From contig CM097886.1 in assembly GCA_044892525.1 (NCBI GenBank), positions 43,214,001 through 43,278,000 on the forward strand: a DNA stretch of 64,000 nucleotides, written 5' to 3'. Numbering within the stretch: the first letter of the stretch is position 1; each line of letters opens with the position of its first letter. The notes below the pieces were generated by a model, which was not told where the DNA came from, made no database searches, and worked only from the letters and a program-made list of their open reading frames with translations. A program made the position numbers and the translations under genes. Source of the DNA: Schmidtea polychroa (Eukaryota). This document shows, piece by piece, positions 318 through 21,723 of the stretch.

Positions 318-485
318 TGGTGGGTTACTGATGATCAAATATTTTGCTCTTTAGTGCTGTTACCAGCGTAACCCAAGATACGACATTGTTTACCGCTTGA
401 TACCCGTTGAACGATCAACGTTGGTACTGTATCAAGAGGGTGAGTGTTCGCAAAAAGTGAGCGCTTGAAGGCTTGTGTCCGATTT
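318..485 (-). ncRNA. Candidate structured RNA motif, copy 1 (three-way junction plus long hairpin; tRNA-like/PBS-like end)
   Basis: Pairings read on + strand: GGGTTAC 322-328 / GTAACCC 368-374; GCTG 356-359 / CAGC 364-367; CTTGATAC 396-403 / GTATCAAG 429-436 enclosing CGTTGA-acga-TCAACG. Same architecture at 1180-1401 and 21541-21723. Strand assignment is uncertain. Confidence 0.55.
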
Positions 486-1179
486 GGCCTGGTCCCTTCA
501 CCAGATTGTCTTCCCAATACCATGCCCTATTCATCCCACTTATCTCCCACATACATCATTTTTTTCAATTCATGCACACACGCACATGTTTCATGGCAAC
601 TCTCTAGTGAAAGTTAATAATTATTTATTAAAATACCACACATAATTCAGGTTTATGTTTGATTAATTTCCCGTTCAATCAAAATACCAAAAATTAATAC
701 TCAATTTTAATTCAGGCAATCCAGATTAAATTAAAGTTGAGTTTAATTATCCAGATTTCTTTTCCTTTTAAAAATTAAATTTTCAATTAATAATAAAAAT
801 AAAAATTTAATCCAAGGTGTTTAAATCACCTATTTATAATCAACATAATTTTGATAATTTGAATTTTTTTTTCTAATTTATAATGGTAAATTTAATATTT
901 TTAATTTTAAATATATATCGCTGAACAATTTAGCTCTGTCGGTGCTTGGCAAATTGTCAGAATCCCCCGTAGATTCCTAATTTGTCATCACTTAGGCGGG
1001 TTGTCCGGTTCAGCGTAATCACTTAGTTAACCCCCCATATTTAGAGATACGGATGCAAAACGGCCCGTCATAATGTCGGTCTGTACCAGGATTGAGGTTT
1101 ATTTCTGCCCGGATTTGTAACTCATACCCTTGAATTACAGAGTCTCTCTTTGAACCGGTTAGTTGGTATTTTATGACTA

Positions 1180-1401
1180 TGGTGGGTTACAGGTACTGTA
1201 AAATCTTTACCTCCTCATGCTGTTTCCAGCGTAACCCAGAATACAATTTATAGCTGACCACTTGATACCCGTTGAGCAATCAACGTTGGTACTGTATCAA
1301 GGGTTTGGGCGCTAGCAAAAAGTGAGCATGCTTAACATACTATAATTGTCTAGCACCCCCTGGGGTTCACGGACTGCCGATAGAAGGCCTGTGTCCGATT
1401 T
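1180..1401 (-). ncRNA. Candidate structured RNA motif, copy 2
   Basis: GGGTTAC 1184-1190 / GTAACCC 1231-1237; AGGTA 1191-1195 / TACCT 1208-1212; GCTG-tttc-CAGC 1219-1230; CTTGATAC 1261-1268 / GTATCAAG 1294-1301 enclosing CGTTGA-gcaa-TCAACG; shared GAAGGC(C/T)TGTGTCCGATTT block. Confidence 0.55.
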
Positions 1402-1502
1402 CTTTTCGTCCCCGTTACGACAATTAACATTGTAATAAAAGAAAATCAAAATGCCCCGCTATGGACGCACTAGTGAAGATTTATTTGGACAACATGAATA
1501 AC

Positions 1503-1967
1503 TTATCGTGTGCTGGTCGGCCCTCTTGGTGTAGCCTCTGATTCAGTAGCATGGAGAGCTAATTGGGCCTGACTGGCCTGCCTTATCCTCGCTCGCGCCG
1601 CTTTTCCCGGCCGAATCTTCTTCCTTGGGGCTACCGCTGTTGGGGCGTTTTCCTTCGATCGACGGAGCAACTCATCTAAGGGCCGGATCTTGGCAATGAC
1701 CTCTCGCTCCAGCTCCTGTTGATGCACCTTGACTTCCAGTTCCCTCACTCTTAGGCGGAGGGCCCGCAACTCAATCTGGTCTTGTGCATTCTGAAGTTGT
1801 AGTTGGGTAATCAACTTCATCCTCTTCTTCATCTCCGCTGGTGGGAACCAGGTGCACTCGAAGTTCCGACAGTGGGCCTTGACTCGTGTCCACTTGGTCC
1901 GGTATTCTTCCGCCTGTCGTTGTGCCCGTTCCCTATCGGCTCGCATCTCTTCCAAGAGTTCCTGCAC
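1503..1967 (-). CDS. Orphan coiled-coil protein with basic C-terminus (ORF-B); probably the 3' exon of a spliced ORF
   Basis: 154-codon GC-rich ORF in AT-rich context; heptad-like QLQLQNAQDQIELRALRLRVRELEVKV; no ATG at the start, preceded by a pyrimidine tract and acceptor (ctttgttttag|TG CAG); a decayed homologue exists at 21113-21310. Confidence 0.65.
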   Translation of the reverse strand: MQELLEEMRADRERAQRQAEEYRTKWTRVKAHCRNFECTWFPPAEMKKRMKLITQLQLQNAQDQIELRALRLRVRELEVKVHQQELEREVIAKIRPLDELLRRSKENAPTAVAPRKKIRPGKAARARIRQASQAQLALHATESEATPRGPTSTR

Positions 1968-2471
1968 TAAAACAAAGGTAACATCAATATCTTTCTACAT
2001 TATTGTCGATGTATTCTTGCCCTATCGCGGCCACCATCACTAAACGAGCCACTATCCTCACCCCATAACCCCGCATTTATGTGCCTCTAAACCCCGTTCC
2101 ACTCCTAGGAGTCTCTCCAAAGACTCGTGGTGCTGTTAAGGATACTGACCCTTAGCTGTATCGCGGTCAAACTAGGTGAAAAATCTATAATTGAGTTACG
2201 AGTAATAACAAACTACTAACATCAGGTGGGCAGAATCGATGAGTTTGCAGTTAACTTTAATTACCAAATAAAGAAAATGTTCACAATTAGATTATTATAC
2301 AAGACATAAATTGGTAACCAAGGACGTTTATCGAGTTAAACAATAATGTACATTTAAAGGTCGAAATCAATACATGCAAACTGTAAATTTTATTCAACCG
2401 AATACGGTCATAGATCAATGTAAATTTGTTCGCGGCACGGTACCGCACAGTGTTGATTCTTGATCTGGTTA

Positions 2472-2936
2472 TCACTTTGATTTGGCTGGATTGATCTTTC
2501 GTGGGCGACCGCGCTTTCGTGTTTGCTCCGGCTCTCGATAGGGACTTCGCGGCCATTCCAGTCCACGGCGGAGGGCTGCGGTCCGCTTAGGATGACATTG
2601 GGCTCGAGCGTAGCCGTCGCAGTCTTCTAATTCACCAGCCAAAGTTGCTTCCTCGAGCCGGTGTAGTCGATCTATCGCCACCGTCACCTCGTCAAAGGCG
2701 TCGATCAAAGCTAATGACGCGCGATTGAGGTAAGGCTCCACCTTTGGGGCCACTGGGATCACATTCTGATAGGTCCAGTCATGGATCTTGTACCAGATCC
2801 ATCTGGACCGTAGCCGGGCGATTTCTGCGTCCTCTCTCAATCGGACGGCTTCGTCTGCTTCCTCGCCGGTAATTTCTAGGCTCGAGTCGACTGATGAGGG
2901 GCCGGCCGGCATATTCCTTGACCTAGTGTTGGGCAT
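2472..2936 (-). CDS. Orphan protein with C-terminal AT-hook-like motif (ORF-A)
   Basis: ATG-initiated 154-aa GC-rich ORF ending RKRGRPRKINPAKSK; splice-acceptor-like tttatattacag 2 nt before the ATG. No family recognised. Confidence 0.6.
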   Translation of the reverse strand: MPNTRSRNMPAGPSSVDSSLEITGEEADEAVRLREDAEIARLRSRWIWYKIHDWTYQNVIPVAPKVEPYLNRASLALIDAFDEVTVAIDRLHRLEEATLAGELEDCDGYARAQCHPKRTAALRRGLEWPRSPYREPEQTRKRGRPRKINPAKSK

Positions 2937-3989
2937 GACTGTAATATAAACAAAATATTAGAACCAATCTTTGTACTTCTATTACGTTTGATCACTCCAA
3001 AATGTCCAAATACCTCATTACAATTTATATACACGCATAACACCCAACCAGTTCAACAGACAATGATTTGTAGGCGAAGTAAATTAATTTACGAATTTAT
3101 TTCTATATTTGGTTCATATATCCAATTTAATAAATTAGTTCCAGATTACTAAATTAAATCAAGTTCCTATATTCCAGATCGGTAAATTAGGTTTATCAAC
3201 TTAAGGGTGGGCATAATTAAGGTAGACAATTTCGCATTAAAATAAATATTTGAATGAAATTTCATAAATTAAATTAAAATAGATATTTGAATGAATTAAT
3301 TAACTGAAAAATTTGAATTTCATAAGTCGATTAAAATTACCCGTCCAAATGGATTTGTTTATCTTAATTAAAATTTTAATTCATTATTTCACAATAAGCT
3401 CTCTTTCTTAAAAGGAAATTTCTCTTTTTAATCTACAAAATTTTGCTGCTAAGACCCACTACGAGGGAGAACATTGCTATGTATCGAAAATTATATTCGG
3501 TCCCTAGTAATTTCTAACCGTAGGGGTTGTGGGTAGCTCTATCCTCATCCTAATGGGCAAGTAACTAAAATTTGTTAAATTTTCTATCCGTTTCATTTCA
3601 GGGATTCAATCTTCTCAACTCCCATTTCAATCAAGGAATATATCTGGATAAATTTTCTAGACAGTCGTGGGCTAATGACAGTTTACATGTGCCCTCTTAC
3701 TTCATTTGCAAGTTGTTTGTACTCCATTCTTGGTCATCCCAATTTTTTGGTGTCTACATTTATACGTACAGTGGAAATGCCAGAATAAAGTTTTTGCTCA
3801 AAGGGGTTTTGGCGAGTCCCTTTTTTCGCTTACCTTCCTACATCCTGGGTAAGACTTTTCTAGTGACTGAGAAGGTTTGGTAAATGAGTTTTATGATTAT
3901 TACTAAATATAATTGTTCGTTCTTGTTGAATTTAATAATAATAACCTTAAGAATGAGGTTGGTAATAATAATAGTAATAATAATGATAC

Positions 3990-4230
3990 AAAATACATTA
4001 ATAATAATACTCATTGTAATAATAATATTAAAATAATAGTAATAATAGTGACACGAAATATATTAATAATAATACTCATTGTAACAATAATATTAAATTT
4101 ACAGTAATGATAATGATACGCAATATTAATAATAATACTCATTGTGATAGTAATATTAAATTTACAGTAGTGATAATGATACGAAATATATTAATAATAA
4201 TACTCATTGTAATAATAATATTAGTAAGAA
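3990..4230. repeat. About 63-66 bp imperfect tandem repeat (x4) within AAT-rich low-complexity tract
   Basis: Core ATTAATAATAATACTCATTGT recurs at about 3997, 4062, 4125 and 4190. Confidence 0.8.
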
Positions 4231-4960
4231 TGATGGAGATAAAAATAATAATAAGAAGAGCAATAATCATAACAACGAGGATGGTAATATTAGTAATGAT
4301 AATAACCTCAATAATAACAATGACAATATGGTTAATGATGGTACTAATAAACATAGATTCGTAGAGTATGGGATTACCACATGTGGGAAATCACTTGCGG
4401 AAAAATCATGAACTCATTTTTCGCCCTGAGATGTACAATGATATTTCTAAGAGTAAAGTAAGTCAACTAGGTTCCTGCAGCAAATTAAACTAATACTTTT
4501 AGGTAGTCCTTAGGGACTATAGGAATCGAAGAGTTATTTATGTAAACTTACGGGTAATCCTCCTATGTCACAATAAGTCGATTATGGCAAGAGCCTTTAT
4601 GAAAATTTATAACTCGTCATTTTTCGCATACCAAAATTCTAGCTAGATTTTAAAATGAGCTGATTTAGGACACAACGGGTAATGAAGGTATATTTCGGGG
4701 GGGGGGGGGGGGTCATTTAAGAAACTTGTAATTTAGTTTTTTCTGAACCTAATATAAGTTAAATATACATTAAGGAAACTTTATACTCCTATATACTTCC
4801 ATAAGGTAATAATATACATTTTAGTAAAGTAAATCTGTTGAAAATTAATAATAATAATAGAAAATTAATAATAATAATCATAATGATCCTAAAGATGGAA
4901 ATTGCTAAATTAACATTGGAACATATTACTATCTAAAATTATACATTAACATGAGTTCAT

Positions 4961-5136
4961 NNNNNNNNNNNNNNNNNNNNNNNNNNNNNNNNNNNNNNNN
5001 NNNNNNNNNNNNNNNNNNNNNNNNNNNNNNNNNNNNNNNNNNNNNNNNNNNNNNNNNNNNNNNNNNNNNNNNNNNNNNNNNNNNNNNNNNNNNNNNNNNN
5101 NNNNNNNNNNNNNNNNNNNNNNNNNNNNNNNNNNNN
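4961..5136. other. Assembly gap (N run). Other gaps: 7550-7697, 17082-17414, 43028-43156, 44425-44552, 54823-55053, 56518-56680
   Basis: N characters in the sequence. Confidence 1.
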
Positions 5137-6269
5137 AATCTATAATTTATCCTTTTCTAATTATAATGTAAATACGTATTAAGGAAGTTAATGTACTTGT
5201 ATATGCCATTATATGGCAACGATATACCCCCTTTTCTTAATGTAGTTTTTAGAAGATCAATCATGATAATAGCAAGGACACCCAAATTGATAATATTATT
5301 AGGACTCAAAAAAAAATTTGTTTGAAGATTTTATGTCATCTACCTTTCAATACGCATAGAGGCAATAAAAATTGTTAAAGGATTTATAAAATATTTATTG
5401 AACGTGAACTAAAATACATTAAACAAAATTATGAATAGTAGTACTAAAATTAGTTAATATCAGGTATTAGTTTATGCAATTAGCCGACTACCGAAAGCCT
5501 CTGTATTAATTTGAGTCTGGGATATTTCCCGTTTAGATGATCCTAGTGGTCTGTTTCCTATATCAGAATTAAGTGTTGATTTTTGGTATGTCGTTTACTG
5601 AAAAGTCGAGTTAATTAAAATTTTCCTACTTTCCCGACCCAACTGGATACGGTACGATAGGCCTTATTGTATTATGTTTCCCGCGATTACTTTCCCGAAG
5701 TTTATTTCGTCCGCATAGTCCCTGTGACTATGCCAACTACCGGTATGGGTTTACCGCCCTACTCCTGGTTAGAACCATTAGTTCGTGGCGACCTCCGGTT
5801 AAAAAAAAAAGTTTAGATTTTTATGCATGTGGGGTCGTAGACCCAAAATTTGTGCGTGTGGTCTATAAATTGGAAACAAGGCTGATCAGCATAGTGACTA
5901 TAACCCGTTCACAATGCTGGTCACTCTTATTTCGTGATAGTAAGATTAAACAAAAAAAAACAAAAAGTTAATCAATATAATGAAATGAAATCACAAATAA
6001 TAAAATAACAATTATAAAATAAATAACAATCATGATAAAATTAATCAATCGTCCTTACTATTAGTGGGTTCCGAATTTTTCAAGAAAAATTTTGGCATAA
6101 AAAGATTAAATTGTGACTAAAATGCGTCGGTATATATACCTATTTTGTACACGTGTATGTATTGATGTATTAAAACAAACTCGAATTCTTTTTATTCCAG
6201 AATTTTCTATTTTGTAATTTTGATATTTTTAATGGCGATTTTTGCGTCATAATTTTTATTTTTATTTTT

Positions 6270-6755
6270 AAAATTTTATTTCCTAAATATTTTTTGCTAA
6301 TTTTTCCTCCATGATGGATTTGGCACGGTTCCAGAACATTCCATATTACTTTTAATTCAATTTTTATTTTTAACTGATATTTTACGAATTTCTTTTTAAG
6401 AAATTTTATTTTTAATACTAATTTATTTATTTTTCTAAATTTTATTGTTTAAGGTAGCTTTTATGATGGTCATCGCCATTTTTATGGAATGTTCTGGGTT
6501 TTTCTGGAATTTTTTTGCTATTTTTACCATCTTTTAAGTTATTCGAGTTTGTTTTTTGTAACTCTGTGTTTATTTGGCTATTTTTGAGTTAGATTTTGCA
6601 TAACTTCTTGTTTTTGTATAATTTTATTTAATTTCTGTGTTTTAGGTTTTTGTTGTTTTTTTCCTTTCATTACCATTGGTTATTTGGTGTAGTTTTTAAT
6701 ATTTAACTATACTTTTTGCTTTTTGCATGCTGTGTACCTACACATTTCCGTCACA
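6270..6755. repeat. Dispersed repeat, possibly an LTR fragment (ends ...CATTTCCGTCACA); paralogue at about 18225-18812
   Basis: Shared blocks CCTCCATGATGGATTT, CCAGAACATT, CGCCATTTTTATG(G/A)AAT and TGTGTAC..ACACATTTC(C)GTC in the same order and orientation in both copies. Confidence 0.65.
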
Positions 6756-7697
6756 ATTAGAAATTTGGGTCTAGAAGTCAGTTCTAGCCCAACAACTATT
6801 TCAGGAATTAAGCATTTTTATCGGGAAATTTAAATGGATAGTATAATTTCCAACATTGTGAACTGATTTTGTGTAACGGATTTCGGTAATATTTTAACGT
6901 CTTAATGGATTTTTTTTTACTCTTCTGAAAATGATTTTGGTAAATGATTTTAGTAATATTTTAGTAATAATTTGTACTCTTCTGTAGATGATTTTGGTAA
7001 TATTTTAGCGTTTTGAATGAATTTTTTTTAAGTCGTATTTTGACACTAAATGATTCCAAAATGGTTTCATGCTTCTGGTAAGTATATTTGATTTTATCTT
7101 TCTCAATTTTTTGCTTGTATTTAATTAATAAATGTAATAAATTTAATGTAGTTTGGCTCGACCATCGGGTGGCGGTGCTTCTAAAATTAGAATATGTAAA
7201 ATTCTAAGGACATTATTGGAGAAAGGTGTTCTATATTTACCTTCGACATTAGGGGAATCCTAAATCGATAATTTTAATAAAAAATTTTCTTTGTATAAGT
7301 AAATTACCCAATTAATTAATAATAGAGTATACATTAGCTGATTAGTAGTATTAACACGATCCCGATTAATATAAAACTTGGGGGGGGGGGTAATTTATGA
7401 AAATTATAAATTTTGATGTTTAAAATTTAATTTATCTGTATATATTCTATATTGATATTTGATACTATTATCTTGACTATTTTTCAACCTGGGGGTAATT
7501 AAGAACGTTTGTAATAAAAAAAATTCTTAAGGGATTAAATAACTGCATGNNNNNNNNNNNNNNNNNNNNNNNNNNNNNNNNNNNNNNNNNNNNNNNNNNN
7601 NNNNNNNNNNNNNNNNNNNNNNNNNNNNNNNNNNNNNNNNNNNNNNNNNNNNNNNNNNNNNNNNNNNNNNNNNNNNNNNNNNNNNNNNNNNNNNNNN

Positions 7698-10600
7698 AAT
7701 ATCGATAATCATGAGACAACTAATTCTCAGATAGAAAACTGTATACCCACCGACCCCTGCCTTGAAGTATCTATTATCCTCCCGTCTAGATGTCGACCCT
7801 CTCCTCTCAATGACACACCATCATCCTTCCATCTTATCTGTGGTCAGAGACCTGCATCTTGTGATCTTGACTGTTCCCCTCGCCTGATCCTAAACAGTAC
7901 TACCAATTTGTTGTCTGATTGCGAAAACACACCCCCTCCCCCGCATCCCTCTCGTCGTACCCAAAACGCGTCTCAAACCTCTGACTTTGATGACATAGTC
8001 CTCTCGGATAACTCTACCACCTCCTCTCATTCACCCATAACACCAACTGCCCTCCATACATCAACCCCAACCCCAGCTGCCCCAATGAACATTACCAAGC
8101 AAACAATACCACCGAATAAGAAAGATACCGCCCTTCTCGAAGAGGCGCAGGCTCTCCTACGTTTGGACTCACAAATGGACGTCCAAGGCAAAATAATTCA
8201 AATTGTAACTGACCAAATACCCCAACCAACACCAGACTTTCTCACCCCTAAACGCCTCAAGAAGCTAGTTAAAAAACGTAACACCACGACCCCAAAAACC
8301 GACTATGAACACCTTCAAAATAATACTACCCTATATTTTCTTGACAACAGAGGCAAATGCAGATGCAGACCCAACTTCAAAGTCCCTCTCTGCGACTCAA
8401 TCTCCATCTCCCTATACGATAGAACCGCCCTAATCAGCCATGCCCAAGACATCCATAACATCATCTTTGACCAAGAATCCCTTATTGACTGCTACCAATG
8501 TCGACCTAAGTTTGGAGGAATAGGAAAATTTGATATGAACCTCTTCCGCTTTAGGGACATCATTAACCATATTGACCACTTTGACCACCAAATACAAACT
8601 GACCGTAAGCTGCTTAAACGCGTTAGTACCAGGATCGCCCCATCCAACAAAATAGTCTGCCACATCTATAACAAAACCTGTGCCAGATTTTTGATCCACC
8701 ATGACCCTAGCTCCTCCTTAAAGACAATCACGCAGCACATGGCTAAGTCACACAAAAAATATACATATGACCCCAACGAGGAAGTATACTGTTTCTGTGG
8801 CCTATGGATACTCTTCACGGACATCAAAGCCCATATTAATTCCATGCACCCGCTTCCATACTCCCACGTCTTCACTAAACCTCCACCCTCCGCCGAATGC
8901 AGTATTGAGATACATGACTTGAATACTGAGAACCTTCTTGGCCCACTACTTGAAACCCAAGAAAGCATGTTCCACATCTCTGATAGTGAAACTACCAAAC
9001 GACCACTACCTGATGACCTACTTTTCACACCTAACATTGACAATGAATCCGCATGATGGTCACAACACGCAATTAAAGCATACATCTTTTCCTTCGCCAT
9101 GAAAAAATCAACAATCTTCGTCGACCCTTTCATCGGAAACGCCCTCATCCAACATAACTATAAAACTTTCTTTTCAACCTTCCCCTTCCATGAATTCGCA
9201 GAGTGGAATGAAATTATCATACCCATGTCCAATGGACAAAACAGTTGGTTCTTCTTCTTCCTCGATAAAAAACAAAAACTTGCAGTACTCATTGACCCAT
9301 TAATTGACAACAGCCTTCTAACACACTCAAAACTCGCCAATAGCCTACTTGAAACCATCCTAGACCTTCAGAAAATTGTCTTACCCATATCCATTGACTT
9401 AATAGAACCCAAATACCCTCGCTGCAGTGTGCCTGCAGACTCAGCTTTCTTCATCTGTCACTTCATTGAACACCTCATCACGCGACACCCCCTCACCACA
9501 CCCCACATTTCCTCTATGACCTTGAACTTAAAACAATTATTAATAATTATATTAAAAATAAAATACCAAATAATGATATACGTAAATATAAACAGTTTAT
9601 AGAGAATATTATTTTTAATCTCATCGAAAACAAAACTGATGCCGACTCTGCTATTTCCGAAATGGAAAAAATAAATGCAAACATTCACCCTTTAAAATAT
9701 ATTACCAAAAAACCCTCTGACATAATACATAAAAAAACCCGTAATGAGAACGAATTACTCTTCATTAAAAGGAAAAAATACACCATTAACCCAAAGGAGG
9801 AAATAGCAAAGATCCTGAGAAATACCCCAACCTTCCAGAGACCCACTATGGATAATATTCTTAAACTCTTTGCTGGAACACTCACAAGTTGCTCGCCTAA
9901 TCCTTTGATTGAACTACCCTCACTTCCCGAAAATCTCTCCTGCGACCCCTTTGACATCGATGAAATTAAGGCAATCTTCAAGCAACTCGGCAATACGGCC
10001 CCAGGTATAGATGGCATCTCTTTATCTGACTGGAGAATTCTATCACCTGACTTCGAATTCCTTCTATCCTTGTTTAACAACCTACTACGCACAACTACTT
10101 GCCCTATGTCCTGGAAAACTTTTCGCTCCAAACTAATTCTAAAAGCTGGAAAGACCGAGACAAGCCATGAAGCTAACTCCTGGAGACCCATATCTATCAT
10201 GAACACCTCATACCGTATATTCTCCTCACTTCTAAACAATCGCCTCTTGAGCTGGATAAAACTCGGCAACCTACTATCTAACAACCAAAAGGCTATATGT
10301 GCACCCGATGGATGTGCTGAACACAATTTCACCTTACACCTTGTCAAAGATGCTGCAATCCGCAATAAAACTGACCTTCATATCATATGGCTCGATATCT
10401 CCGATGCTTTTGGATCCTTACCCCATTCCCTTATATGGCACACTCTCACCAATATGGGACTCAACCCAAATACAATCAAACTTATAAATGACATGTATAA
10501 CGATGTACAAACTATTTTCGAATGTGAAGGAGAACGTTCCCCATCTGTCCCCATTGTTAAAGGAGTTAAGCAAGGATGCCCCTTATCTATGACAATCTTT

Positions 10601-11313
10601 TGCCTATGTATAGACTTCATACTTCAACATGTCTTAAAACACCATCCCTTCCTTTTCCATGGACACAACATTAGCATCCTTGCCTATGCCGATGATATTG
10701 TACTAATCTCTGACTCGTACTACTCTATAAACCTAGCACTTTGTGAAACGACACAACTGGCTTCACAAGTTAACCTTCGATTTAAGCCCTCGAAATCCGG
10801 ATACTTTCATATCAACCATGATGACAATTATAACCCAATCCGCCTTTATGACGAACTCCTCCCTAGAATTGATGACTCTAACCTCTACCGATACCTTGGA
10901 GTTGATTTCACGTATAAAGTAAGGCACAACATTGAGGAGAGACTTGAAAATGCCTTAAATGATACCAAAACAATTCTAGCCTCCCATCTGCACCCTGCTC
11001 AAAAACTCAATGCCTACAAAATTTTCATACATTCTCGCCTTACCTATATCTACCGCAACTGCGAAATTCACCACAGTATTCTCGACTCCGAAAGAAACCT
11101 TAAAAATAATGCAGGCGCCACCCAAAGACTAAAATCTATAATCAAAAACGCCATTGGCGATAAAATTTGCGAGCTCAATAACAATTTCCTATATACATCC
11201 ATCAAACTTGGAGGACTGGGGTTAACATCCCTCATTGATGAATATCTTATCCAGGGAATTGTCCACCTCATACGTGCCCTCAACTCAACTGACACTGATT
11301 TTCGCAACCTCGT
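7698..11313 (+). mobile_element. Non-LTR retrotransposon, NeSL/R5-like (RLE-group) RT, 5' portion: zinc-finger-like region, Ulp1-like protease fold and RT; inactivated
   Basis: Frame open from the gap edge at 7698; in-frame TGA at 9054-9056 continues in frame into the 9099 ORF; frameshift near 9545; RT motifs APGIDG, WRPISIMNTSYRIF, WLDISDAFGSLPH, GVKQGCPLS, LAYADD, YRYLGV, GGLG. Clade is inferred from the protease-like domain upstream of RT, as in NeSL-1. Confidence 0.85.
9662..11313 (+). pseudogene. Reverse transcriptase ORF segment of the non-LTR element, interrupted by the gypsy insertion
   Basis: RT motifs present. The last two residues (VK*) are read from the inserted LTR; the true frame resumes at 16483 (N-L-V-L-S-E-L after removing the insertion). 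Confidence 0.9.
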
Positions 11314-11558
11314 TGTTAAATAAAACTAGAAGTCGAATTCAAATTATATTCAAAAATTATAACAATATCGGTTTGACTAAACAAATCATTAAATTGACGA
11401 TTAAGCATTTCTAAATAACAATAATAATTATGTACGCCATAATATAATACGAATATAATACTTTAATATATGTATATGTTAATTTCTTAATAGTAATAAT
11501 TCAGATGTAATTTATTATTATAATATTATATTGTGCTAATAATTAAATCTTCCTCACA
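11314..11558 (-). repeat. 3' LTR of the gypsy element
   Basis: TG...CA termini; PPT AAACAGGGGGGA immediately upstream on the minus strand (11559-11570). Confidence 0.97.
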
Positions 11559-14129
11559 TCCCCCCTGTTTAAAAGGCTTTAGCCATTCTACATTTCGAAT
11601 CATTGTTTTACCTTCTTTATCCATAAGTTCGTAACTTCTATCATGTAGTTTTTTTATCACTCGAAAAGGTCCTCTGTATCTATCATCTTCTTTTTTTCTT
11701 GTGTCTATCTTTACTAAAACGTTGTCATCTATTTTAAATTCTCTATTAATTCTATCTGCGTTTCTGTACTTAACATTTCTTTGCTTTTCTTGTATCTCTT
11801 CAATGATTCTAATTCGGTCATTAGTAACTTCCTTTTTGTTTTGCCATTCTCTTGTTATTCGAAACCCAAATACTATTTCCGCTGGACTTTTCCCTAATGT
11901 ACTTTGTACGGTTGCGTTCAAAGCAAATTCAATTTCTGGTAATACCTCTACCCAATTGCTTTTTAATCTATCTTTAATTGAGGTACTCATGAAATCTCTT
12001 ATTGTTCGAAATCGCCGTTCTATTAATCCATTTGCACTATGATGGTATGGACTTGAAAATTGAAGCATTATGTTATGGGTTTTAGCTAATTCTTTCATCA
12101 CACCTGATTCAAATGTCTTCCCACAATCTACTTGAATTATCCTAGGAGAACCGTATTTTAGAATCCAAAATTTCATTATTGTGTCCGCTGTTGTTTTCTC
12201 ATCTTGCTTAGAAACTGCTGTAAGAGAAATATATCGAGTGCACATATCAATAATTCCTAAAATATACTTTTTCCCATGTACACTTGTTTTCAAAGGTCCA
12301 CAAAAATCTATAGCAATTGTTTCAAACGGTTTCGACACTTCCGTTTTTAGTATAGTTTCCTTTGTTTTAGTTGTTAGTGTTTTTCTTTTTTGACATAATT
12401 CACAATTTTGAATAATTTCTGTAGTTATCATTTGTAATTCATCCATGTCATAATTTACTTTTATGTAGTCAATCACTTTTTTGCAACCTGCGTGGCATAG
12501 GATTTTATGCATTTCTTTGATAAATTTTTCGCGATTGTTTTTAGGAATCCAAATTTTATTTTCTTTTGTCATGATAACATCATCATCAATCTTAAATTTA
12601 GTTTTTACATTTTTCATGATTAATTCTTTTTGATTTTCTATCTCAACATTACCCTTTTGCCAAATCACACCTTGCTTAACAGCTGTCATTGTTAAAAGTC
12701 TTGTTTTCATTTTTTCTGTTTTAGGATTTTCATGAACTTCCATACATTGAGTACATCGTCCACACTTATCTCGGGATAATGCATCTGCATTGGTATGTTC
12801 CGTACCTTTTCTAAATGAAATATCCATGTCCAAACTGCTAAGAAAATTTATCCAAGTTTGGAATTGTGCCGTGATTGGCTTTTTTGTTGCCATCATGAAT
12901 GTTATTGCTTTATGGTCCGTTCTTAATTTAAATTTTTTCCCATACAAATAATGTTTAAAATGTTGAGTAAAATAATAAATGGCCAATAACTCCTTCCTTG
13001 TTATACAATAACCTATTTCATGCTTATTCATTGAATGCGAACCATATGCAATTACTCGCTCATGTCCCTGTTCGTCTAACTGTGATAAAACCGCACCAAT
13101 TGTGTCAAAACTTGCATCAGTGTCCAAAATAAATTCTTTCTGAAAGTTAGGGTATATTAATACTGGTGTTTTCGATAATGCATTTTTTAATTCTTCAAAT
13201 GCTTCTTCACATTTTTCTGACCATATAAGTTTTTCATTAGTCGTACCACATATAGACTCTAATATTCGTGAAAACATTGAATAATTTTTTATAAATTTTC
13301 TATAATAATTACACAACCCCAAAAAACTTCTTAGTTGTTTCAAACATTGAGGTCTTACAAAATTTTTAATTGCTTCAATTTTATTTTCATCCACTTTCAC
13401 ACCTTCATTATTAATTATATGGCCTAAAAATTTTGTCTCATTTTTTAAGAATATACATTTTTCTGGATTTACTCGTAATCCCGCTTCCTTAATTTTCATT
13501 AATACTTCATTTATTCTTTTAAAATGCTCTTCTTTATTTGTAGAAAATATTAATATGTCATCCAAATATACAATAGCTGTATTCCACAGAAGTTTTCCTA
13601 AAACCATATTCATTAGTTTTTGAAATGTAGCCGGTGCCGCAGCAATTCCAAAAGGCATTCTATTAAAACAGTACTGTCCGCTCCTTGTTGAAAATGCGGT
13701 TTTTTCTTGTGAATTATTTGTTAACTCCACTTGATAATATGCACTTCCAAGATCTATAGTACTAAAAAACTTGGATCCATTGAGTGAATCTAACATTTGT
13801 TCAATATTAGGCATTGGAAATATTTGTCTTTCTGTTATTTTATTTAGGTTTCTAAAATCCAAACACAATCTGATGTCATTCTTTTCTTTTTTCCAAACAC
13901 ATACCAATGGAGTATTCCAACTCGAATCACATTTCCTAATAATACCATTTTCTTCCAAATTTTTTATAGCCTCCTCAATCTTTTCTTCTAAATGAGCCGG
14001 TTGTCGTCTAGGGTTCATGTAAATTGGGCCCTCAGTAGTTTTGATTTCGTGCCATAATAAATCTGTTTTTCCAATGTCCCATTTATCAGCCATAAAAACT
14101 TCTTTATTTTCATTAATTATCTGATACAT
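11526..14129 (-). CDS. pol: Pol: reverse transcriptase, RNase H and integrase
   Basis: LCLDFRNLN, YLDDILI, TDAS, TDHK, HHCC zinc-binding (HKILCH..CELC), DDE integrase (IAIDF, VDCG, LIERR), GPF motif. The stop codon lies inside the 3' LTR. Confidence 0.95.
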   Translation of the reverse strand: MYQIINENKEVFMADKWDIGKTDLLWHEIKTTEGPIYMNPRRQPAHLEEKIEEAIKNLEENGIIRKCDSSWNTPLVCVWKKEKNDIRLCLDFRNLNKITERQIFPMPNIEQMLDSLNGSKFFSTIDLGSAYYQVELTNNSQEKTAFSTRSGQYCFNRMPFGIAAAPATFQKLMNMVLGKLLWNTAIVYLDDILIFSTNKEEHFKRINEVLMKIKEAGLRVNPEKCIFLKNETKFLGHIINNEGVKVDENKIEAIKNFVRPQCLKQLRSFLGLCNYYRKFIKNYSMFSRILESICGTTNEKLIWSEKCEEAFEELKNALSKTPVLIYPNFQKEFILDTDASFDTIGAVLSQLDEQGHERVIAYGSHSMNKHEIGYCITRKELLAIYYFTQHFKHYLYGKKFKLRTDHKAITFMMATKKPITAQFQTWINFLSSLDMDISFRKGTEHTNADALSRDKCGRCTQCMEVHENPKTEKMKTRLLTMTAVKQGVIWQKGNVEIENQKELIMKNVKTKFKIDDDVIMTKENKIWIPKNNREKFIKEMHKILCHAGCKKVIDYIKVNYDMDELQMITTEIIQNCELCQKRKTLTTKTKETILKTEVSKPFETIAIDFCGPLKTSVHGKKYILGIIDMCTRYISLTAVSKQDEKTTADTIMKFWILKYGSPRIIQVDCGKTFESGVMKELAKTHNIMLQFSSPYHHSANGLIERRFRTIRDFMSTSIKDRLKSNWVEVLPEIEFALNATVQSTLGKSPAEIVFGFRITREWQNKKEVTNDRIRIIEEIQEKQRNVKYRNADRINREFKIDDNVLVKIDTRKKEDDRYRGPFRVIKKLHDRSYELMDKEGKTMIRNVEWLKPFKQGGCEEDLIISTI

Positions 14130-14130
14130 T

Positions 14131-15126
14131 TTATCTCCTTTTTTTTAAATCAAATAATTTTATTGCTCGACTAAATCTTTTCTCATCATTATATGAGTTG
14201 CTAAATCTTGCCTCAATATTACAAATTTCATTAAAATTATTTTCTATTTCCGTATTTTCAGTTATACTATCGTTTATTTTCATTAACTTGATGTTGAATT
14301 GACGAAGTAAATCTATCCCACCAATAATTGACGGTGAAACCTTTTTAACAACAACAAAAATCACATTCTCTTCTTTGTTACCGATTTGAATCTTCAATTT
14401 AACATTGCCAAATGTTTCCAATGGACTGCCATTTGCACACCAAATTCCTTCATTGTGAGGTTTAATATCTATCTCACCTATTTCTTTGATGATCGAGCTA
14501 TCTATTACATTCATTCTAGCCCCCGTATCCAATAGACAATGTTTGAAATAAATCCTATTAATCCCAACTATTACGCTTGGTCTTCCACCCATCTTATCAT
14601 ATACAATTTCTAAATCGTCATTTAAAACAGAAATATTATTTATATGTTTATCCAATGTTTCGTCATAAACAAACCTTTTACTGCTATTTATTAATTTTGC
14701 CTCACAAATACTTATTATCTTCTTACAATTCTGATCACATTTATTTTCAATTACATTAATTTTATCACGCATCCAATTACAATCATTAATATCAGTTTTA
14801 TCTCTTACGTCATATATAATCTTACTGTTACTCTGATTATCTTCCTTTATTACATCATATTTTTTTAATTTACTTTTCACGTTTTTAATACTATCTTCTA
14901 AAATTACATCTGATTTAAATCTAATATTTTTTACCTTTAAATTTGATTTAGATATACTGTCTAAATTATTATTACTACTTTTAAAATTATACATACTGTC
15001 TAAATTACTATTACTATTATTATTAAAAAATATACTATACTTATCTTGGCGCACACAATCATCATTATTACCTTTTAATGCATGGCTCCTATCATCTCGC
15101 CTAATGATGGAGCCCTCCCATTTGGG
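14131..15126 (-). CDS. N-terminal Pol segment with aspartic protease (LLDTGA), entered by -1 frameshift from gag
   Basis: Frame open from the slippery site near 15120 to 14131; CLLDTGARMN; separated from the RT frame by one extra A in an A8 run (14139-14146). Confidence 0.88.
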   Translation of the reverse strand, partial: PKWEGSIIRRDDRSHALKGNNDDCVRQDKYSIFFNNNSNSNLDSMYNFKSSNNNLDSISKSNLKVKNIRFKSDVILEDSIKNVKSKLKKYDVIKEDNQSNSKIIYDVRDKTDINDCNWMRDKINVIENKCDQNCKKIISICEAKLINSSKRFVYDETLDKHINNISVLNDDLEIVYDKMGGRPSVIVGINRIYFKHCLLDTGARMNVIDSSIIKEIGEIDIKPHNEGIWCANGSPLETFGNVKLKIQIGNKEENVIFVVVKKVSPSIIGGIDLLRQFNIKLMKINDSITENTEIENNFNEICNIEARFSNSYNDEKRFSRAIKLFDLKKRR

Positions 15127-16238
15127 TGTCCATCACTTCGGGTAGACTGAGAATCCTCCGCTTCGTTTCCGCGGTCTTCCATAGCTGCCACTCTTCCATC
15201 GGCATATCTGTCTTGATATCGTCTGTTATCCTCGTAATTTCTAGATTGGTTTCTTCCTGATGATCGTGTGTCTGCTGTTCCCCAACATTGAAACCGCAAG
15301 TGACCACGTTTTCCACATCCTGAGCATGAAATCGATGGACATTCTCCCCGGTGATGGCCAGATTCCTTACAAGCGTTGCATCTCAATTCTGAATTTATCT
15401 TGTTATTTTTACATTCTCTAATCATGTGTCCTTCTTTTCCACATCCATAACACTTCTTTTTTGGGCATTCTCGACTCGAATGTCCTAGTTCTTGACAATT
15501 CCAACATGTAACAACGCGACTTCCACTTGCTCTGTTGTCTCTATGGTAATACTGTTGATTAGTATTCCTTCCAGAATCGAAGCTTTGAGCGTGCGGAATA
15601 GAATTGAATCTTGGTTCAAAATTTCGTCTTTCTTGAACATTCGAAAAATTGCGTTGTCGATCTTGTATATCGGCAAATCCTTGTCGTTTCTTTATTACGT
15701 TTGCGAACGTTTCTTTTCTTTGCATAACTGCAATACTAGAAACTTCAATGTTGATAGCATCAACTTTACGAATTACGTCCTTGATCTCTTCGACTTTTAA
15801 AGCATCTCGCATCTTGATCTCTTTTTGGATTTCTTTGTCTTTGACACAATGTATCAAAAAATAAGCGACTAATTCGTTTTTATCCCACTTGTGTTTCAAT
15901 ACTTTGTCGACCATTTTCTCAATCTTTTCGAAAAACACTGGCGCTGCATCGTTATCTTTCTCATAATTGTATAAGTTCAGAAAATCGCCTATCAGTGTTG
16001 ACGGCTTCTTGAAAGCTTCTCTGAGTCTATCTTCAAAATTAATAAATTTGACATCGACGGCTTCATAAATCGGTAAAATATCTCTTGAAATAAGACATTT
16101 TATCATCATATTTTGGTTATCTTGATCTAACCCACATAACTGAAAATATCGCTTACATTCTTCAATGAAAGTTTCGATTTCGTGTCTTCCGTCGTAAACA
16201 TCCGGAATCATCTTATTCACTATTGCCAGGGTCGCCAT
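15075..16238 (-). CDS. gag: Gag with four CCHC zinc knuckles
   Basis: CWNCQELGHSSREC, CYGCGKEGHMIREC, CNACKESGHHRGEC, CSGCGKRGHLRFQC; intact 387-aa ORF. Confidence 0.95.
   Translation of the reverse strand: MATLAIVNKMIPDVYDGRHEIETFIEECKRYFQLCGLDQDNQNMMIKCLISRDILPIYEAVDVKFINFEDRLREAFKKPSTLIGDFLNLYNYEKDNDAAPVFFEKIEKMVDKVLKHKWDKNELVAYFLIHCVKDKEIQKEIKMRDALKVEEIKDVIRKVDAINIEVSSIAVMQRKETFANVIKKRQGFADIQDRQRNFSNVQERRNFEPRFNSIPHAQSFDSGRNTNQQYYHRDNRASGSRVVTCWNCQELGHSSRECPKKKCYGCGKEGHMIRECKNNKINSELRCNACKESGHHRGECPSISCSGCGKRGHLRFQCWGTADTRSSGRNQSRNYEDNRRYQDRYADGRVAAMEDRGNEAEDSQSTRSDGHPNGRAPSLGEMIGAMH
15084..15126 (-). promoter_or_regulatory. -1 programmed ribosomal frameshift signal
   Basis: Heptamer C CCA AAT (15126-15120) in the gag frame, 5-nt spacer, then hairpin GGCTCC-ATCAT...ATGAT-a-GGAGCC; the -1 frame is open into the protease. 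Confidence 0.8.
16226..16237 (-). promoter_or_regulatory. Primer-binding site TGGCGACCCTGG
   Basis: Directly abuts the 5' LTR end. TGGCGACC fits tRNA-Arg-type 3' ends (one mismatch to vertebrate tRNA-Asn PBS); the cognate tRNA is not resolved. Confidence 0.8.
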
Positions 16239-16482
16239 GTTAAATAAAACTAGAAGTCGAATTCAAATTATATTCAAAAATTATAACAATATCGGTTTGA
16301 CTAAACAAATCATTAAATTGACGATTAAGCATTTCTAAATAACAATAATAATTATGTACGCCATAATATAATACGAATATAATACTTTAATATATGTATA
16401 TGTTAATTTCTTAATAGTAATAATTCAGATGTAATTTATTATTATAATATTATATTGTGCTAATAATTAAATCTTCCTTACA
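16238..16482 (-). repeat. 5' LTR of the gypsy element
   Basis: Matches 11314-11558 except one base near the end (CCTTACA vs CCTCACA). Confidence 0.97.
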
Positions 16483-18224: not shown

Positions 18225-18812
18225 CTTTCCTATATTTGCTTATTTATTTTTGCTTATTTATGCCTCCATGATGGATTTCAGCATTTCCAGAACATTTCAT
18301 GCTAAATTTAATCTATTTCTTATTTTTAAATTGTTTTTTATGATTCCTTTTCTAAAATTTTTATTTTTTAAACTAAAATATTTATTTTTTATAAATTTTA
18401 TTGGGTCGTTTGGCGGTCATGATGGATTTCGCCATTTTTATGAAATTTTCTGGATTTTTATTCAAAATATCGATATAATTTTCTTTACGTAAGATTTTAT
18501 GGAGATTTTCTTTAATTTTCTTTACGTAAGATTTTATGGAGATTTTCTTTAATTTTCTTTTTTAATTTTTACTAATCGCCTTTATTCGAATTTGTTTTTG
18601 GTTGTTTTATGTCTTTCGGTTATATTTGAGTAAGTTTTTGTGTAATACTTCTTGCTCGTGTTTTATTTTATTTTTAATTTAGATGTTTCATTTTTGGGTA
18701 TATTATCTCTTTATTATCATTGTTTACTTGGTGTTTTATATATTTTTATTTAAGTAAACTTAATGCTGGGTATGCGTGTTGTGTACTGACACATTTCGTC
18801 CCATTCCTAACT
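18225..18812. repeat. Diverged copy of the 6270-6755 repeat
   Basis: Co-linear shared blocks (see the 6270-6755 entry). Confidence 0.6.
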
Positions 18813-19165
18813 TTTGAATGTGTAAGTGGTTGTGAATATGTCCAAATGTGAGTGAATGATGATATTAGTGAGTATAATTATTTAATTATTACAAAACAAT
18901 ATGAGGGTTAGCATATGGCTGGGACACATCCTAATAGTACATATAACTGGCAGGATAAAGTTTTTAAGTTAGTAACTCATTAACACATTTAAATTAATAA
19001 ATATCAAATGGATTATTATAAACACAAATATTAAAATTTAATAATATAAAAAGAATATGTATAAAATTAAAATTTTTTTTATCCAATGAAAAATAAAATA
19101 ATTATATATAATTTTTATGTTATCTCAATTAATTAAATATCTGGAAAATAAAATAAAAATAAAAA

Positions 19166-20413
19166 ATGTCAGATATAAATAATTTAAATTATGATTCAGA
19201 TAAAAATACAAATAAAACAATTGAATATAATTGCAAATTATGTTCCAAAATGTTTTCGAAGCCAGTTCCTTTCACAAAACATATGAAAGTGTGCCATTCA
19301 ATAACTGTCCACGCATGCAGAAAGTGTAAAGACATTTTCAGTGAGCTTGGTCATCTATTTTTGCATAACAAAGAATTACATTCTAAAAAAGAATACAGTT
19401 CATTTAAATTTCAATGTGAATTATGTAGTTATTCGACAAATAATGGGGGTCTTTTTAGGCATCATCAATTAGCTCATAGTGGTAAAAAACCGGAGGTTTG
19501 TGATATTTGTAATAAAGGTTTCACACAACATTCAAATATGAAAGTGCATAGAAAGCGACATTTCAAATCATCAACAGACTTTTATTGTGAAGAATGCGAC
19601 ACGACTTACGGATGTCACGAAGTACTGCTTGCGCACAAAGCTACCCAAGGGCACAATTTGACAATGCATATGAATCAAATTTGGAATGTTAAAGTAGAAA
19701 TGATTTGCCAGAAATGCAATTATAAAACACAGATTATTGAAGAAATTATGGCACATAGAGAGAATTGCATGTGTAACAATTTAATATCCTGTGAAATTTG
19801 TTCTAAGAAATTGTCACTGAATATTACAAATTTACGAGAACACAGGAAATTACATCGAGATGAATTATTATTTTGTTTGGAATGTGCAGAAAATTCTGAA
19901 AGATTCAAATCAAAACAAGCATTATTAAAGCATTTAACAAAAGAACACAAATTCGAGTTTCGTAAATCTGTCGTTTGTCGGTATTGTGAAAGTCTTTTTG
20001 AAAATAAAACCAATTTATTAGAACATATCAATTCTAGCCACAGTGACAAAAAGTTTAAGCATCAACCGAATGAAGAAATTGGCAGACTCGAATGTGAAAT
20101 TATGGACTGTGATTTCATTACAAATTCACTTCTACTCTTAGAGAAACATTATAAACAAGTTCATAATATTGAAATTAAAATAGATGAAGAAATTTTACCT
20201 AATACTATTGTTAAAACTCATTTAATAGGTCGGCCAAAATTGTGCGATTTAAAAATTAAAAATTTTCAAAATTTAAATAATACAGTAAATATAGAAATCG
20301 CACCAATCAAACGTAAAGGTCGGCCGAAAAAACCATTCGTTGAAAAAGTACCAAAAATACGTGGACGTCCAAAATTAATTAATAATTTGATTAAATGTGA
20401 ACCTATCATCTAA
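19166..20413 (+). CDS. Single-exon C2H2 zinc-finger protein (about 10 fingers) with C-terminal AT-hook-like GRP motifs
   Basis: Repeated CxxC...HxxxH, including CDICNKGFTQHSNMKVHRKRH after an HSGKKP linker; IGRPK, RKGRPKK and RGRPK near the C-terminus; intact 415-aa ORF. Confidence 0.9.
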   Translation: MSDINNLNYDSDKNTNKTIEYNCKLCSKMFSKPVPFTKHMKVCHSITVHACRKCKDIFSELGHLFLHNKELHSKKEYSSFKFQCELCSYSTNNGGLFRHHQLAHSGKKPEVCDICNKGFTQHSNMKVHRKRHFKSSTDFYCEECDTTYGCHEVLLAHKATQGHNLTMHMNQIWNVKVEMICQKCNYKTQIIEEIMAHRENCMCNNLISCEICSKKLSLNITNLREHRKLHRDELLFCLECAENSERFKSKQALLKHLTKEHKFEFRKSVVCRYCESLFENKTNLLEHINSSHSDKKFKHQPNEEIGRLECEIMDCDFITNSLLLLEKHYKQVHNIEIKIDEEILPNTIVKTHLIGRPKLCDLKIKNFQNLNNTVNIEIAPIKRKGRPKKPFVEKVPKIRGRPKLINNLIKCEPII

Positions 20414-21310: not shown

Positions 21311-21540
21311 ACGTGGAATTGAAATTGACGATATCCGCCAAACGATAACAGTTAACGAGGAATAAAAAACGACTCGTAAAAGCCAAACAAGGTTGATCAG
21401 ACTAAATAAATTTTCTGCAATCATCGATTTTTGTCATAAATAATTATATTCGTGTGTGGGATATTTAGTAAGAAATACCGGGAAAGGAAGAGAAAAAGTC
21501 TAATTAAAGTTACTACCAAAGTATGGAGCTAAGCAAAAAG

Positions 21541-21723
21541 TTGGACCCAGGCCTTCTAACGTCAGTCCTCGAACACATTTGAATATTTTCCGATTGTAGT
21601 GTATTCACTTTTCACTCGATACAGTTCCAACGTTGATCACTCAACGGATATTGAGTAGTACAGTATTCTTGTACGCTGGAAACCACACGAAATGGTAAAA
21701 TGTGGTCAACCTGTAATCCACCA
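21541..21723 (+). ncRNA. Structured RNA motif, copy 3 (decayed; inverted relative to copies 1 and 2)
   Basis: GGAC.CAGGCCTTCTA..CAGTCC, GATACAGT.CCAACGTTGAT..TCAACGG, TACGCTGGAAAC and CCTGTAA.CCACCATA match the reverse complement of 1176-1401. Confidence 0.6.

Follow-up and report, generated by a model that had tools for sequence, protein, structure and literature searches.

A probable folded RNA leader at the LTR end of Burro-type Gypsy retrotransposons in Schmidtea polychroa

Nested LTR ends in the window

The window (the whole 64,000-nucleotide stretch of Schmidtea polychroa DNA analysed here) carries near its left end two copies of a structured motif. The motif makes up the final ∼240 nt of a long terminal repeat (LTR) of ∼5 kb, belonging to a Burro-type Gypsy element whose sense strand is the minus strand; the Burro-type assignment is made from domain order, LTR size and total length. 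Read on the sense strand, the LTR starts with TGTTGG at its far end and finishes with CCACCA at the motif, so that CCACCA is a one-base variant of a terminal inverted repeat and contains the terminal CA that integrases require. Direct repeats of 4.8–5.5 kb with TG...CA ends begin at the motif and recur ∼16 kb away in all six elements that were read to both ends, and the two repeats are 99.6–99.96% identical in five of the six. Target duplications of 4 bp are found outside the LTR pair in each of these full elements and in eight of nine solo-LTR pairs, and a gag frame lies on the minus strand of the window. The original prediction had similarity ending abruptly at TGGTGG, and this is borne out, as the flanks to its left are unrelated among 30 loci save for one duplicated pair. 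The far LTR and the 4-bp duplications rule out the 3′ tail of a non-LTR element or SINE.

Table 1. Positions of LTR-end features in the window.
Feature	Position	Strand	Remarks
Copy 1, LTR-end module (R/U5 candidate)	318..497	-	∼50 nt internal loss near 465
LTR terminus CCACCA, integrase CA end	318..323	-	imperfect inverted repeat of TGTTGG
Closing 7–8-bp stem, stacked 4-bp GNRA hairpin and variable linker	322..374	-	stem arms 322-328/368-374; GNRA hairpin 356-367
Conserved 6-mer, predicted partner of last LTR base and spacer in 5′ LTRs	378..383	-	stem crosses the LTR boundary
Long bulged hairpin	396..436	-	two-sided changes in lower stem; 8-nt palindrome at 416-423
Host LTR (copy 1), 3′ part, split by copy 2	318..1179	-	resumes 6795-7549; collinear with L028/L051 and L030, 90–95%
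Copy 2, 4-bp target-site duplication	1176..1179		repeated at 6795-6798
Solo LTR, 5,615 bp, TG...CA	1180..6794	-	sits inside copy 1
Copy 2 module, complete	1180..1413	-	closing stem 1184-1237 (arms 1184-1190/1231-1237); GNRA hairpin 1219-1230; long hairpin 1261-1301
Copy 2, upstream domains	domain 2 ∼1306-1358; domain 1 1370-1398	-	
Host LTR (copy 1), remainder	6795..7549	-	ends at a run of N
Third, older module copy	21535..21723	+	70–82% to nearest scored relatives; closing stem 2 nt short

Because a solo LTR with its 4-bp duplication sits inside a collinear host LTR, copies 1 and 2 are nested LTR ends. Both contain the elements described in the original prediction, namely the closing stem GGGTTAC/GTAACCC, the GCTG/CAGC hairpin and the long bulged hairpin (Table 1), and the third copy that it mentioned was located in the opposite orientation. 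As LTR remnants without a primer-binding site (PBS), the copies in the window would be unable to prime themselves. A start-region fragment of the same LTR family lies at 18244-18814, in the opposite orientation to the third module copy.

The solo LTR also contains two pieces of open reading frame (163 and 161 aa; 1503-1994 and 2472-2957) on the minus strand, which is the LTR sense strand. They are shared at ∼99% by many copies of the copy 2 subfamily, and Pfam gives nothing above cut-off for either. Resembling peptides are encoded outside LTRs at two other places (L042/L088 and L046), and the pieces were possibly captured from another repeat.

A giant Gypsy element family

Patterns were scanned against 781 Mb of genome, which includes four very large contigs. 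The stem-hairpin-stem pattern gave 2,546 matches, the core of the long hairpin 2,660 and the far end of the repeat 2,708, each against none for the reversed control, and the LTR family therefore numbers ∼2,500 copies. Its subfamilies differ in their U3 regions and have the last ∼240 nt in common.

At one locus (L126) a copy of the motif is followed downstream, on the same strand, by a PBS and by frames in which Pfam searches on pieces identify Gag-CCHC, MATH, a fusion glycoprotein, protease, reverse transcriptase (RT), RNase H, integrase and ankyrin domains. The RT is of Gypsy type, and in this copy the gag part is followed by a stop. BIR and BCL2-like domains, also features of Burro/GYPSM1, do not appear at E 0.001 among the frames scanned at this locus, four in all. 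In one element the internal region measures 25.5 kb, from the PBS at C1:10,234,146 to the start of the 3′ LTR at C1:10,259,633, so that with two ∼5-kb LTRs its total exceeds 30 kb. The subfamily nearest to copy 1 of the window is a shorter relative, ∼21 kb long and lacking pol, with 71% identity over 341 residues; it has a single frame of 1,572 aa. Loci L033/L034, L040/L041, L042, L047, L050 and L052 hold young members of the ∼21-kb pol-less subfamily, with LTR pairs up to 99.96% identical and one long gag frame that has a hydrophobic C-terminal stretch.

The element itself is already known. Burro and GYPSM1 are described, in the accessible part of PMC6431247, as giant Gypsy-like LTR retrotransposons of planarians, with internal regions of up to 25 kb and totals above 30 kb. 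The likeness extends to the thousands of copies, the ∼5-kb LTRs and the ∼25-kb internal region (checked at the locus), and the domain order is that of the element at L126, with Gag-CCHC, MATH and an env-like fusion domain between gag and pol, then PR-RT-RH-IN and ankyrin (same part of PMC6431247). The pol-less subfamily nearest to copy 1 departs from that description. In the same part of that source (PMC6431247) nothing is said of RNA structure at the LTR end, of the PBS, of a spacer or of the polypurine tract (PPT).

Primer-binding site and spacer

In 5′ LTRs the LTR end is followed, on the minus strand, by an 8-nt spacer and then by an 18-nt PBS that is an exact complement (18/18) of the 3′ end plus CCA of the genome's tRNA-Pro(TGG). 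The spacer is identical in all 29 PBS-bearing copies of the LTR family, and the PBS follows in 387 of 408 ends that carry the spacer. Within a set of ends chosen for closeness to CCACCA, 144 of 151 read exactly so. The PBS occurs 1,058 times in the genome; the first 30 occurrences fall into the LTR family of the motif (13) and four families with unrelated ends (17). These sister families have an LTR end CAACA and a 7-nt spacer, the LTR end being verified in one family, where ten of ten copies without a PBS diverge after CA. Spacers between an LTR end and a PBS are usually 0–3 nt long.

The suggestion that TGGTGG on the plus strand is itself a PBS fails on position, since no LTR precedes it and its flanks are unrelated target sites; the real PBS is 8 nt past the LTR end on the minus strand and is present in 5′ LTRs only. 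Additional pairing between U5 and the tRNA is not detected in the LTR family of the motif (p 0.19–0.41 in four of four copies), and two other families give p 0.02–0.04, uncorrected over 11 tests. In three other tRNA-Pro-primed families (L120, L125 and L121) the best match to the D-loop region of the tRNA (nt 8–20) falls in every case ∼60 nt upstream of the PBS, with uncorrected p of 0.02, 0.04 and 0.25 respectively.

Some incidental observations concern the primer and the spacer. A tandem array of tRNA-Pro(TGG) genes with a period of ∼475 bp is present at C1:130.9 Mb (L096), and a 21-nt tRNA-Pro(TGG) pattern has 2,190 matches genome-wide. One solo LTR (L150 with L179, C1:4.26 Mb) lacks the usual terminal CA and terminates instead in the first four bases of the spacer, after which comes a 5-bp duplication; this single case fits a cDNA end that bore the spacer.

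Fold, covariation and strand

Covariation was assessed in 20 distinct copies taken from 107 that passed the filter. The minus-strand consensus folds into four predicted domains at −47.2 kcal/mol, with two-sided changes in 13 of 51 pairs, and the plus-strand consensus gives −34.1 kcal/mol with such changes in 9 of 44. Two of the covarying domains lie further upstream on the sense strand and were overlooked in the original prediction, so that the unit is ∼240 nt long. Scoring the 49 pairs left after removal of a 2-bp long-range pair, we find two-sided changes in 13 pairs and 55 cells; for cells, none of 500 shuffles is as high and slid controls lie far below, the number of further pair types is not above shuffles (425/500), and as the copies are related all these shuffle counts overstate the significance.

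The two-sided changes are located in domains 1–3, and none of the 20 copies has one in the closing stem or the GNRA hairpin. With 37 distinct copies the closing stem still has a two-sided change in none of seven pairs, and the GCTG hairpin in one of four (a single cell). Covariation among copies, which the original prediction had named as its test, is thus present in domains 1–3 and missing from the terminal stems. The tRNA-like part, supposed to be conserved in shape rather than sequence, proves to be conserved in sequence. Lacking covariation, the closing stem and GNRA hairpin could be maintained by their sequence, as an integrase attachment (att) site, and not by pairing.

The functional strand had been left undecided, and the evidence now favours the minus strand in most respects. 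Besides the consensus energies, domain 2 on the minus strand has 38 G.U cells against 4 A.C, counted on a structure that, like the one scored for covariation, was derived from the minus strand, and with 18 of the 38 coming from one near-invariant pair. On the plus strand this domain largely collapses. The minus-strand GNRA hairpin of the original prediction is upheld, as the small loop reads GNRA on that strand in 36 of 37 copies, and the 57–58-nt three-way junctions of the two window copies fold as described, with z of −3.98 and −3.40 on the minus strand and −1.43 and −2.47 on the plus strand. The AAAAA-loop hairpin that had been proposed for the plus strand is absent from the best-supported fold.

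The long hairpin is the exception. Here it is the plus strand that gives a GNRA loop, in 35 of 37 copies, so that the hairpin may also act on strong-stop DNA, and its counts of G.U and A.C are even (4 and 6). Part of the module, and chiefly this hairpin, could function from the opposite strand, whether as minus-strand strong-stop DNA or as antisense RNA; strand transfer is one process in which it might act. Watson-Crick covariation is blind to strand, the plus strand as DNA folds into the same hairpins, and one subfamily folds better on the plus strand (z −3.02 versus −1.36). However, domain 2 is largely lost there, and the variation in the long-hairpin loop consists almost wholly of transitions, which a UYRC loop on the sense strand explains equally well. 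We regard an other-strand role, which would be compatible with a leader on the minus strand, as unlikely though worth keeping in mind.

An 8-nt palindrome, half buried in the long hairpin, is present in 32 of 37 copies and has a self-duplex energy of −11.7 kcal/mol. In 12 copies of the module, no poly(A) signal or TATA motif recurs at the same position.

A predicted helix across the LTR end

Where the spacer is present, folding predictions continue the terminal stem past the LTR end. In all nine representatives, drawn from five families, an upstream arm is predicted to pair with the LTR end and the spacer, to within 2–3 nt of the PBS. Pairing probabilities for this helix are 0.61–1.00, compared with shuffle means of 0.11–0.46, and between 0 and 4 of 100 shuffles per representative match it. 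The U5 sequences of the five families are unrelated, and it is this modelled helix that is the feature conserved in shape across families. As the spacer is invariant within the family of the motif, support for the spacer helix comes from comparison across families only. A conserved helix is thereby predicted directly 5′ of the PBS and over the att site.

The folds could instead be by-products of conservation at the DNA level only, for an integrase att site or promoter-proximal sites. The invariant, non-covarying terminal stems would suit this explanation, but the two-sided changes in domains 1–3 and the recurrence of the spacer helix in five families of unrelated sequence do not, and we consider it improbable.

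We conclude, with a probability of about 0.8, that the terminal ∼240 nt of the Burro-type LTR, on the minus strand, form a folded 5′ RNA leader of four predicted domains, the last of which would pair across the end of the LTR and through the 8-nt spacer, stopping 2–3 nt short of the tRNA-Pro PBS. Its designation as R/U5 follows from its position in the LTR and is putative. The terminal helix would hold the PBS in place for tRNA-Pro to anneal and reverse transcription to begin, as retroviral U5 stems do, and the upstream hairpins and palindrome may serve packaging, dimer formation or strand transfer. CCA would then be the integrase CA end, making an explanation in terms of tRNA superfluous. Integrase would have to trim 8 nt from the cDNA end in this family, and 7 nt in the sister families.

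Resemblance to tRNA

The original prediction had the broad class right, that of a retroelement cis-element which is structured and connected with priming or packaging. Its more specific suggestion of a tRNA-mimic 3′ end does not hold: CCA is the LTR terminus, the PBS is an ordinary one for tRNA-Pro, the RT is of Gypsy type, a conserved T-arm is missing and the sister families have no CCA. In 5′ LTRs, moreover, the CCA would not be free, given the predicted extension of the stem through the LTR end.

One form of mimicry deserves separate consideration, in which the terminal domain would make an RNA 3′ end in the 3′ LTR through a cut by RNase P or Z and would be masked in the 5′ LTR by the spacer-extended stem. 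The 3′ end of mascRNA is cut by RNase P or Z. An acceptor-like stem with NCCA is indeed present, and by itself the 7-bp stem with its ACCA gives a good fold. One lineage, at 10 of 30 loci, has a 5-bp arm that stacks immediately on the stem, the spacer helix is possible in the 5′ LTR only, and the modules of 12 copies contain no conserved poly(A) signal. The resemblance breaks down at the second inner hairpin. The two units originally described do fold, but a third arm of −1 kcal/mol or better is found in only 10 of 30 loci taken in genome order, and 11 of these loci, among them those of the full-polyprotein subfamily, have instead a 20-nt linker without predicted pairing. A T-loop-like TTCRA occurs in 5 of 37 copies only, in what by inspection are unpaired linkers. 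A conserved T-arm or T-loop together with a three-way junction is absent across the 30 loci and 37 copies. ARAGORN gave no relevant match to the motif, and neither did Rfam, whether for the whole window at gathering thresholds or for 250-1500 at E-values up to 5. The sister families, for their part, end in CAACA. We think processing of this kind improbable.

Least credible of all is an RNA 3′ CCA acting as a primer-free RT start site, which has CCACCA after a stem and a mechanism described for the Mauriceville retroplasmid (accessible part of 10.1101/792986) in its favour and is already contradicted by a perfect tRNA-Pro PBS, two LTRs, an integrase and target duplications, all marks of tRNA-primed LTR replication. 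Self-priming by the CCA end is likewise needless where a full tRNA-Pro PBS is present.

No polypurine tract before the 3′ LTR

A polypurine tract directly before the 3′ LTR is absent from all 30 loci examined (L229-L258, outside the window), which had been chosen by the motif that replaces it. The longest purine run is 3–4 nt in the last 30 nt and 5–9 nt in the last 200 nt, the extent of the search. Elements picked independently of that motif (six full elements, two from the solo-pair set and two of another family) likewise have no purine tract. All carry, at the place where a PPT is expected, a hairpin followed by a GC-rich stretch. This pattern has 1,159 matches in the genome, near the PBS count, against none for the control, and it pairs by position with the PBS loci of all five families.

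The spacer and PBS find their complement in the GC-rich stretch, over 13 contiguous pairs (−23.8 kcal/mol) in the family of the motif. For 8 of 13 distinct variants no background window equals this complementarity, and the other five rank within the top 2.4%. The duplex of the tRNA with the PBS is much stronger (−41.5 kcal/mol). An alternative or pseudoknotted form, in which the GC-rich stretch pairs back with the hairpin loop, is also possible and shows partial covariation. By inspection, families differ by one base in the distance of the stretch from the LTR start, and they differ likewise in the length of the spacer. Initiation of the plus strand by a tRNA at this PBS-like element is unlikely because, by inspection, sense-strand G.U pairs become C.A on minus-strand DNA.

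These features of the GC-rich element and the spacer suggest 5′-3′ pairing and long extensions of the cDNA ends. A scheme can be drawn up tentatively in which Burro-type elements have non-standard ends: in place of a PPT, a conserved folded GC-rich element complementary to the element's own PBS (over 13 bp in the family of the motif) would join the RNA ends and define the start of the plus strand, integrase would trim extensions of 7–8 bp from both cDNA ends, and the U5 helix would wrap the att site and spacer. We hold this scheme to be possible and well short of probable. The literature searched gave no account of LTR-end structure, a long spacer or a missing PPT in these elements; the original Burro paper, supplements and most subscription papers lie outside that search and may describe the PBS or PPT.

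Comparison with known systems

Structured U5/PBS leaders are a known kind of element, and a U5-IR stem is familiar from retroviruses and from Tf1. The present leader would work like the retroviral U5/PBS segment, in that a structured segment would lie directly 5′ of the PBS and overlap the integrase attachment site, and it does not belong among the tRNA-like 3′ structures. For HIV-1 a structured PBS-proximal segment is established, with a three-way junction and a tRNA-like element (from the accessible parts of PMC11181671 and PMC3185550). There is no sequence relation between the two; unlike in HIV-1, the junction here does not include the PBS, an anticodon-like loop is not apparent and the spacer is 7–8 nt long.

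Ty1 offers a second comparison, through its PAL palindromes and its CYC5/CYC3 pairing (accessible part of PMC3592414). As there, a palindrome in a leader hairpin is a candidate dimer site and 5′-3′ pairing is predicted beside the PBS, but the 3′ partner in the planarian elements is complementary to the PBS itself and is at the place expected of the PPT. The 3′ structure of the Mauriceville and Varkud retroplasmids (accessible part of 10.1101/792986) and viral tRNA-like structures share the order of a stem then CCA. In those systems CCA is a free RNA end and there is no tRNA primer, whereas here it is an LTR end followed by a PBS.

The present analysis adds a leader model backed by covariation, ∼270 nt long with the PBS, for a retrovirus-like family with thousands of copies in this genome. 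There are two departures from the textbook LTR cycle, the gap of 7–8 nt between CA and PBS and the conserved structured element at the place of the PPT. If these departures hold, an RT and integrase of Gypsy type can prime the plus strand and process ends in ways unlike those of the model systems.

Neighbouring elements

Several other elements adjoin the LTR copies. Frames of a non-LTR retrotransposon with an RT domain (Pfam RVT_1) occupy 7539-11323 on the plus strand, beginning where the host LTR remainder stops at the run of N. They are followed at 11314-16482, on the minus strand, by a separate small Gypsy element with identical terminal repeats of 245 nt and gag, protease and pol frames. 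A 416-aa frame at 19163-20413 on the plus strand contains, by inspection, repeated C2H2-like motifs. Just left of the window (L031, 5596-8817), another Gypsy element has its pol frames on the plus strand, and copy 1 lies ∼1.5 kb downstream of them.
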